DNA from: a virus
Taxonomy: Duplodnaviria > Heunggongvirae > Uroviricota > Caudoviricetes
Strand: one strand, 5' to 3'
Virus record (IMG/VR): IMGVR_UViG_2718218360_000018
DNA length: 16,202 nucleotides
The notes beneath the pieces are model-generated. The model was not told the DNA's origin. It did no database searches and saw only the letters and a program-made list of their open reading frames with translations. Positions 1,612 to 1,647 of the stretch are shown one piece after another; the stretch's first letter is position 1, and each line of letters starts with the position of its first letter. The translations under genes were made by a program, and so were the position numbers.

Positions 1612-1647
1612 AGGTTCCCGCACAGGTTCCCACGTTTTATGGGAACC
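1612..1647. promoter_or_regulatory. Clustered GGTTCCC motifs (two direct, one inverted) between dusA and int: candidate integrase arm sites or operator
   Basis: aGGTTCCCgcac aGGTTCCCac gttttat GGGAACC; related motifs gGGTTCCCa and GGCTCCCac recur near the other repeat copy at 14719-14739. Confidence 0.3.

Follow-up and report, generated by a model that had tools for sequence, protein, structure and literature searches.

Many prophages and genomic islands reside in dusA, a hotspot of integration in hundreds of proteobacterial species. Among the elements found there are Shiga toxin (Stx) phages, O157 prophages with effector genes and islands related to the antibiotic resistance vector SGI1. Repeats of 21 bp at the attachment (att) sites have been described for the dusA-associated integrases (DAIs) (Farrugia 2015, PMC4482086; Durand 2021, PMC8409611), and the lambdoid phage mEp460 is listed among the DAI phages (Farrugia 2015, PMC4482086). 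Such elements carry a replacement for the dusA 5' end (Farrugia 2015, PMC4482086; Durand 2021, PMC8409611). The function of rdfN, the gene for the recombination directionality factor (RDF), is known from the latter study, in which a 1.6-kb attP-int fragment of a relative alone sufficed for integration into dusA. The stretch of DNA analyzed here (IMG/VR record IMGVR_UViG_2718218360_000018, 16,202 nucleotides, referred to below as the window) is a remnant of a lambdoid prophage integrated in dusA of Escherichia coli O157:H7. Five copies of the motif GGYTCCC near the two ends of this island are probably the arm-type binding sites of its dusA-specific tyrosine integrase (Int). On the sequence comparisons and the predicted structure described below, the probability of this reading is put at roughly 0.8.

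The five sites and the att cores

The junctions of the island are marked by identical copies of a 27-bp core, TCGAGCATTGGTGCAACGCTAAACCGA, at the places where the first-pass annotation of the window had assumed the att sites to be. Each core sits within a 117-nt direct repeat (1466-1582 and 14771-14887, 83% identical), the two copies of which are two dusA 5' ends. The end supplied by the island differs in sequence from the displaced native copy, and the reading frame is kept. The element has the features of a DAI element: int adjoins the dusA 5' end, direct repeats are positioned inside dusA at both junctions, the replacement 5' end comes from the element, and an RDF gene of the PrtN family (rdfN) is present. 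The att region is composed as follows, with distances from the core given as positive towards int and negative on the opposite side.

1476-1502: att core at the int-proximal junction; encodes dusA residues RFSVAPMLD on the minus strand
1503-1579, minus strand: replacement dusA 5' end supplied by the island, inside the long arm, in the interval between core and arm sites
1612-1620, plus strand: site 1 of the long (int-side) arm, AGGTTCCCG; distance to the start of the core 136-137 bp
1624-1632, plus strand: long-arm site 2, AGGTTCCCA, which repeats site 1 in the same orientation with a spacing of 12 bp; about +148/+149 from the core
1640-1647, minus strand: long-arm site 3, inverted (TGGGAACC on the plus strand), at core +165, with 20 nt between it and the int ATG
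14719-14727, plus strand: short-arm (int-distal) site 1, GGGTTCCCA, at core -61/-62
14730-14738, plus strand: short-arm site 2, AGGCTCCCA, at core -50/-51, 11-bp spacing, same orientation
14748-14760, minus strand: sequence resembling the consensus of integration host factor (IHF), AAACAAATAGTTA, one mismatch, a weak assignment; between the short-arm sites and the core
14781-14807: att core at the int-distal junction
14808-14887, minus strand: displaced native dusA 5' end, that is, host DNA

The clusters of GGTTCCC that had been noted near both ends of the island were confirmed. Exact copies are found at 1613-1619 (+), 1625-1631 (+), 1641-1647 (-) and 14720-14726 (+). The right-hand copies, GGTTCCCA and GGCTCCCA, start at 14720 and 14731 (+), the latter spanning 14731-14738, and these motifs are 43-61 bp inside the island from the 27-bp core. 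The int-side cluster is positioned between the island-supplied dusA start and int. On both strands of the window GGTTCCC occurs 7 times compared to 1.54 expected, a number reached by 1 of 200 shuffled sequences. The other three copies (2478, 7193 and 8235) are isolated. Three or more GGYTCCC copies within 40 bp were found in none of 2000 shuffles of the window. The motif is thus repeated on either arm of attP and away from the crossover region, as is characteristic of arm-type sites.

The attP of phage mEp460

The int gene of the island is split by an IS66-family insertion sequence (IS), and rdfN is located across attP from it.

1668-2404, plus strand: N-terminal part of int as far as the IS, 245 codons for the N-domain (residues 1-60), the linker and the core-binding domain
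2405-4846, plus strand: IS66-family insertion with tnpA, tnpB and tnpC, identified by Pfam
4855-5215, plus strand: C-terminal part of int, 120 codons (remaining catalytic domain)
13374-13682, plus strand: rdfN-type RDF gene, PrtN family (PF11112, E = 4e-23)

The ends of the IS are 22-nt terminal inverted repeats (2405-2426 and 4825-4846). The 8-bp target sequence, AGAGATAG, is duplicated on its two sides, at 2397-2404 and 4847-4854. Removal of the IS and of one copy of the duplication restores an open int of 365 codons, the product of which is 100% identical to the Int of mEp460. All five sites recur in the contiguous attP of this phage, which has a dusA-like core, in the order GGGTTCCCA, AGGCTCCCA, 42 bp, core, replacement dusA 5' end, AGGTTCCCG, AGGTTCCCA and the inverted TGGGAACC, the last at a distance of 20 nt from the int ATG. 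The whole layout is contained in about 230-250 bp upstream of int. The first-pass annotation had considered that the motif might be common throughout the genome. This is not the case in the 42.9-kb mEp460 genome, where the total is not enriched (9 copies compared to 11.1 expected), 5 of the 9 copies are inside attP, and five copies within 300 bp occurred in none of 500 shuffles.

The O157 relic is identical to mEp460 in sequence at the motif positions, and none of its five sites, its two cores and its rdfN is damaged. The sites in this strain are probably cis-acting relics that have lost their trans factor and should work if Int is supplied in trans. An mEp460-like phage should therefore be able to rescue the relic, because the broken int is the only defect in this set of parts.

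Assembly of the recombination complex may be envisaged by analogy with other integrases that hold two DNA sites at once. Excision would yield a circular form in which the island ends are joined into one attP of about 250 bp. Its short arm would carry a tandem pair of sites, at 50 and 61 bp from the core, and its long arm would consist of the replacement dusA 5' end followed by tandem sites at +136/+148 and, close to the start of int, an inverted site at +165. The small N-terminal β3-α domain of each Int monomer would be placed on an arm site, and its core-binding and catalytic domains on a core site. Bridging of this kind across bent DNA would build the intasome and commit attP to recombination with attB in dusA. 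Together with the PrtN-type RDF, the Int intasome could also direct excision from the two junctions. The sites would presumably be needed for recombination.

Fixed positions and exchanged motifs in related elements

The related elements keep the sites at equivalent positions on both sides of the core, where the first-pass annotation had suggested looking for them, and the motif itself is exchanged lineage by lineage. In all 10 elements in which both arms could be read, a motif particular to the element flanks the core on either side. In the seven distinct gammaproteobacterial elements the positions are conserved to the base pair, at -61/-50 and +136/+148 from the core; the inverted copy, at +165, is variable. 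Yersinia phage YeP2, the Int of which is 69% identical, has CAGCACCCC at -61, -50, +136 and +148 and an inverted copy at +164. The P2-like phages SMHB1, ACA2 and M16-3 and two tectivirus-like Vibrio PE elements have motifs of their own (for example, AGTCTCCC, AGTCACCC, GGTGCCCC and AGTACGNAT), again at these two positions on the short arm and two on the long arm. The podophages BcepIL02, GP4 and E220, with Int about 35% identical, carry TTGCTAC on both arms in a different geometry, with two copies on the far arm and two or three direct and one or two inverted copies on the int arm.

A larger sample was taken from bacterial genomes and comprised 80 loci with Int 52-100% identical, of which 62 have a recognizable dusA core. 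No second dusA core, which would mark the far junction, was found in the 80 loci with their 10-kb flanks, and the evidence on both arms is therefore drawn from phage records. A direct-repeat pair of 8-9 bp is present 30-60 bp upstream of int in nearly all 80 loci, and the motifs form more than ten classes. When the pair was required to match at 7 or more of 8 positions, with a spacing of 11-12 bp, between core +125 and +175, it was found in 82% of the 62 loci, compared to 1.3% of shuffled sequences and 3% of random windows of the same loci. The pair begins at +133 to +141 in 56 of 60 loci. In the other four (L048, L052, L058 and L081) it is found at core +146 to +148, a displacement of 10-12 bp or about one helical turn, which is the pattern predicted by a constraint on DNA geometry. 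A scan of IMG/VR returned almost exclusively copies 98-100% identical to the same element and was uninformative about covariation.

One strain of Xenorhabdus hominickii contains two elements (L029 and L041) that use GTACACC and AGCACCCC, respectively. Thus the specificity is encoded by the element and not by the host. The GGCTCCC variant is a natural form of long-arm site 2 in relatives from Kosakonia, Pluralibacter and Phytobacter. About half of the related loci have a clear inverted copy of the motif of their lineage, and perfect inverted repeats of 7 bp or more are present in 35 of 65.

Several other features of these attachment regions were observed. In Escherichia sp. MOD1-EC7003 (L009), whose Int is identical over 356 matched residues, site 2 and the inverted site 3 read GGTCCCC and GGGGACC, and site 1 is still GGTTCCC. 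This coordinated change in two of the three sites, which are located about 57-20 bp upstream of int, could be due to gene conversion or chance. The short arm of Shewanella phage M16-3 (L007) has extra motif copies, GGGGCCCCA and GGTGCCCCA, at core -110 and -91, beyond the usual pair, and SMHB1 has two inverted copies with one mismatch each at -113 and -90. The IHF-like sequence, at core -33, has the same position and strand in mEp460/O157 and YeP2; the marine lineages lack a match at this stringency of one mismatch.

A second repeat system is present between the core and the int-side arm sites. It consists of 2-4 AT-rich tandem units in a 10-bp phase (L004 70-125, L061, L063, L069 and others), for example GAATTGCCTT in ACA2, GGCTATTTT in Xenorhabdus and TGAATTACG in L061. 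Phased T-tracts represent this system in the long arm of the E. coli element (window positions 1575-1611). By analogy with X1-X2 of lambda, these repeats are candidate sites for the RDF or for a bending protein. In the Vibrio PE elements (L172 1-183 and L173 1-167), a perfect CTGT-N8-ACAG palindrome resembling a LexA box, CTGTATATACATACAG, is found in the long arm of the PE_C7 attP, between the core and the arm sites; the B03 counterpart is imperfect. The PE_C7 palindrome could place int or dusA under SOS control.

The N-terminal domain of the integrase

The AlphaFold model of Int contains a β-β-β-α domain in residues 2-58, with predicted local distance difference test (pLDDT) scores of 83-95, followed by a linker in residues 61-70 (pLDDT 66). 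After the linker, the predicted core-binding and catalytic domains match those of lambda Int and Tn1549 Int. An extra N-terminal domain on a flexible linker is the architecture of a heterobivalent integrase. Pfam recognizes the catalytic domain only, and the N-domain has no Pfam family.

The divergence of the motif appears to track this domain. In partial Mantel tests (n = 52) the motif is associated with Int residues 1-40 when the catalytic domain is controlled for (r = 0.34, p = 2e-4), and the reverse association, with the catalytic domain given residues 1-40, is not significant (r = 0.05). By direct reading of the alignment, the motif classes accompany class-specific Int residues at positions 5 and 7 (β1) and 29-36 (β3). 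The latter segment is VITYRESK in elements with GGTTCCC, KYIYRENR with AGCACCCC, KHLHRETK with GTACACC and KRIYNESR with GGACACC, and R17-Y18-R19-C20 in β2 are nearly invariant. More than ten motif classes at fixed positions, and an association that singles out Int residues 1-40, form the pattern of sites and integrase that have evolved together. Conserved positions combined with a motif that is swapped between lineages and follows the Int N-domain are the behavior expected of arm-type sites.

Lambdoid, P2-like, tectivirus-like and podovirus-like phages are represented among the sampled elements, as are genomic islands. Their life-styles and their regulators are unrelated, and int and the PrtN-type RDF gene are the only genes found to be common to them. 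An argument that Int is the only shared gene product, and hence the binder, was dropped because PrtN-like RDFs are present in all elements tested. It was replaced by partial Mantel tests of Int residues against RdfN in the 13 elements in which RdfN could be read. The motif is associated with the Int N-domain given RdfN (r = 0.36, p = 0.008) and has no association with RdfN given the Int N-domain (r = -0.02). Furthermore, elements whose RdfN proteins are 70-76% identical in pairs use different, unrelated motifs.

Alternative explanations

The repeats might bind RdfN, the RDF encoded at 13374-13682, and not Int. RdfN homologs are found in every element examined, including SMHB1 and BcepIL02, and rdfN has been termed ubiquitous in dusA elements (Durand 2021, PMC8409611); tandem direct repeats are, moreover, common targets of RDFs. 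However, once the Int N-domain is accounted for, the motif retains no association with RdfN in the 13 elements compared, and the unrelated motifs in elements with closely similar RdfN proteins are difficult to reconcile with binding by this protein. Xis-type factors act on one arm, and tandem pairs on both arms are the pattern of lambda Int. The motif considered here is on both arms, unlike the sites of characterized RDFs such as lambda Xis, and the 10-bp-phased repeats between the core and the arm sites are better candidates for RDF binding. RdfN is therefore an unlikely ligand. It should be kept in mind that the Mantel and residue-class tests are correlative and inflated by shared ancestry. 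For the assignment to Int they are therefore supportive and not decisive.

An explanation that dispenses with recombination is that the int-side cluster is the operator of an element-specific transcription factor acting on divergent int and dusA promoters, the far-arm copies being a second operator. The palindrome formed by sites 2 and 3 would suit such a protein, and the three sites fill the 88-bp region that, in a relative, must hold Pint and the element's dusA promoter (PMC8409611). Against this, the regulators of the elements are unrelated, with Int and RdfN the only proteins found in common, the far-arm pair is at a distance fixed to the base pair from the crossover core and not from any gene, and displacements by one helical turn point to a constraint on DNA geometry. 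A dedicated operator is thus very improbable. Even less credible is a hairpin, in RNA or DNA, formed by GGTTCCCA-N7-TGGGAACC in the int leader, with the other copies being incidental. The 8-bp stem is perfect, and site 2 and the inverted copy of L009 share the T-to-C change. Nevertheless, the folding energy of positions 1600-1670 is no better than that of shuffled sequences (z = -0.27), and the region has no Rfam match and no terminator-like site. The pairing partner is also inconsistent across lineages: the inverted copy is perfectly complementary to site 1 in 30 loci and to site 2 in 12, with loops of 3-31 nt, sites 2 and 3 are not complementary in L011 and L062, and many lineages without an inverted copy keep direct pairs on both arms. 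The hairpin or RNA element was rejected on these grounds, and the behavior of the inverted copy is that of a further, third binding site and not of half a stem. The proposal of the first-pass annotation that the repeats are arm-type sites is supported by the recurrence of the two-arm layout in relatives and by the association of the motif with the Int N-domain, from which binding by Int is deduced.

Possible control of int and dusA

The ATG codons of dusA (1579) and int (1668) are separated by an interval of 88 bp, most of which is occupied by the three int-side sites. A sigma-70 scan and a looser consensus scan of this intergenic region placed no usable promoter. An active Pint and a new dusA promoter are both supplied by the element in a relative, IMEVchUSA3 (Durand 2021, PMC8409611). 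If both promoters are in or beside the 88-bp interval, Int occupancy would be likely to affect both. Since the long-arm sites fill a divergent control region, it is plausible from their position that Int modulates transcription of int and perhaps of dusA, a role that the first-pass annotation had suggested as a second possibility.

A wider generalization is tentative. More than ten arm-site specificities might have been set on an attP scaffold fixed to the base pair by a few β1 and β3 residues of a previously unclassified N-domain, with the long-arm sites possibly serving as an Int-responsive operator for the int and island dusA promoters. The family would then offer a series of recognition codes varied by nature. 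If the operator function were also true, the level of integrase would be coupled to the expression of a host tRNA-modification gene, dusA.

Organization of the prophage remnant

Over the first 1005 bases tested, the sequence is 100% identical to E. coli O157:H7 chromosomes, the annotation of which names dusA and a tyrosine-type recombinase/integrase. The remaining named genes are the following.

166-418, minus strand: pspG
542-1579, minus strand: dusA, with its ATG at 1579
5277-5525: prophage dinI (Pfam DinI)

Within the IS66-family element, tnpA is located at 2476-2877, tnpB at 2874-3221 and tnpC at 3271-4809. The exact int/IS junction had no contiguous match among the best matches listed in a search of 5,426 complete E. 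coli genomes, in which 8 records cover at least 80% of the query, each as two separated pieces.

The cargo of the island also includes dinI, three NleG effector genes and remnants of tail-fiber and Lom genes. Two tandem sequences resembling LexA boxes (CTGT-N8-ACAG), CTGTTTATTTATACAG at 5218-5233 and CTGTATACAAACACAG at 5246-5261, are found just upstream of dinI. The NleG type III effector paralogs are arranged in tandem at 5686-7689 (-); one was confirmed by Pfam (PF06416, E = 1e-43) and two are similar by eye. A tail-fiber-like open reading frame of 439 residues (8066-9385, -) contains repeats with a 99-bp period at 8340-8602 that encode collagen-like Gly-X-Y runs. The open reading frame that adjoins the short arm (14100-14636, -; 178 residues) is also beside attP in mEp460 and has no Pfam match at E ≤ 0.01.

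Knowledge of the full attP has practical value. It defines how small an att site can be and still function in integration vectors, and it allows the boundaries and the mobility status of islands to be called exactly from sequence. Furthermore, the naturally varied pairs of N-domain and DNA motif constitute a large set for learning how this class of integrase N-domain reads DNA.

Comparison with known systems

Arm sites are mentioned neither in the two DAI papers, in each of which the word 'arm' occurs 0 times (Farrugia 2015, PMC4482086; Durand 2021, PMC8409611), nor in a study of a Citrobacter Stx phage (PMC6328086). In the literature that was searched, the arm-site layout of dusA integrases is undescribed. 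The mechanism itself is of the classic heterobivalent-integrase type, and the finding of arm sites will not surprise a recombination specialist. The element agrees with the described DAIs in having int at the dusA 5' end, a core within dusA, a restored dusA 5' end and a PrtN-type rdfN. The papers on the family, the Citrobacter study included, cover the 21-bp core repeat, the restored dusA 5' end and the RDF, and the arm-site layout is an addition to the description of the family.

The int-proximal arm sites directly precede int, so that bound Int could act as a repressor of its own gene, and in this they recall the sites of IntS from KplE1 (CPS-53; Panis et al. 2010, PMC2951348). The arm-type sites of IntS overlap its own promoter and autoregulation has been demonstrated (PMC2951348), whereas in the dusA element the suggestion comes from the position of the sites and no promoter was located in the intergenic region scanned.

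Lambda Int provides a close mechanistic parallel, its features being taken here from Laxmikanthan 2016 and established knowledge. Like the lambda arm sites (P1, P2 and P'1-P'3 in a 240-bp attP), the dusA element has a short non-core motif repeated on both arms, with short-arm tandem copies about 50-60 bp from the core and long-arm copies more than 100 bp away, in an attP of about 250 bp. Both integrases have a small extra N-terminal DNA-binding domain on a flexible linker, which in the dusA integrase is predicted. However, the motifs are unrelated, the two integrases are not close relatives (Pfam matches the catalytic domain only), and the RDF of the dusA element is of the PrtN type and not Xis. 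Unlike in lambda, it is the int side of the dusA element that has the long arm, and part of this arm, the replacement dusA 5' end, codes for protein.
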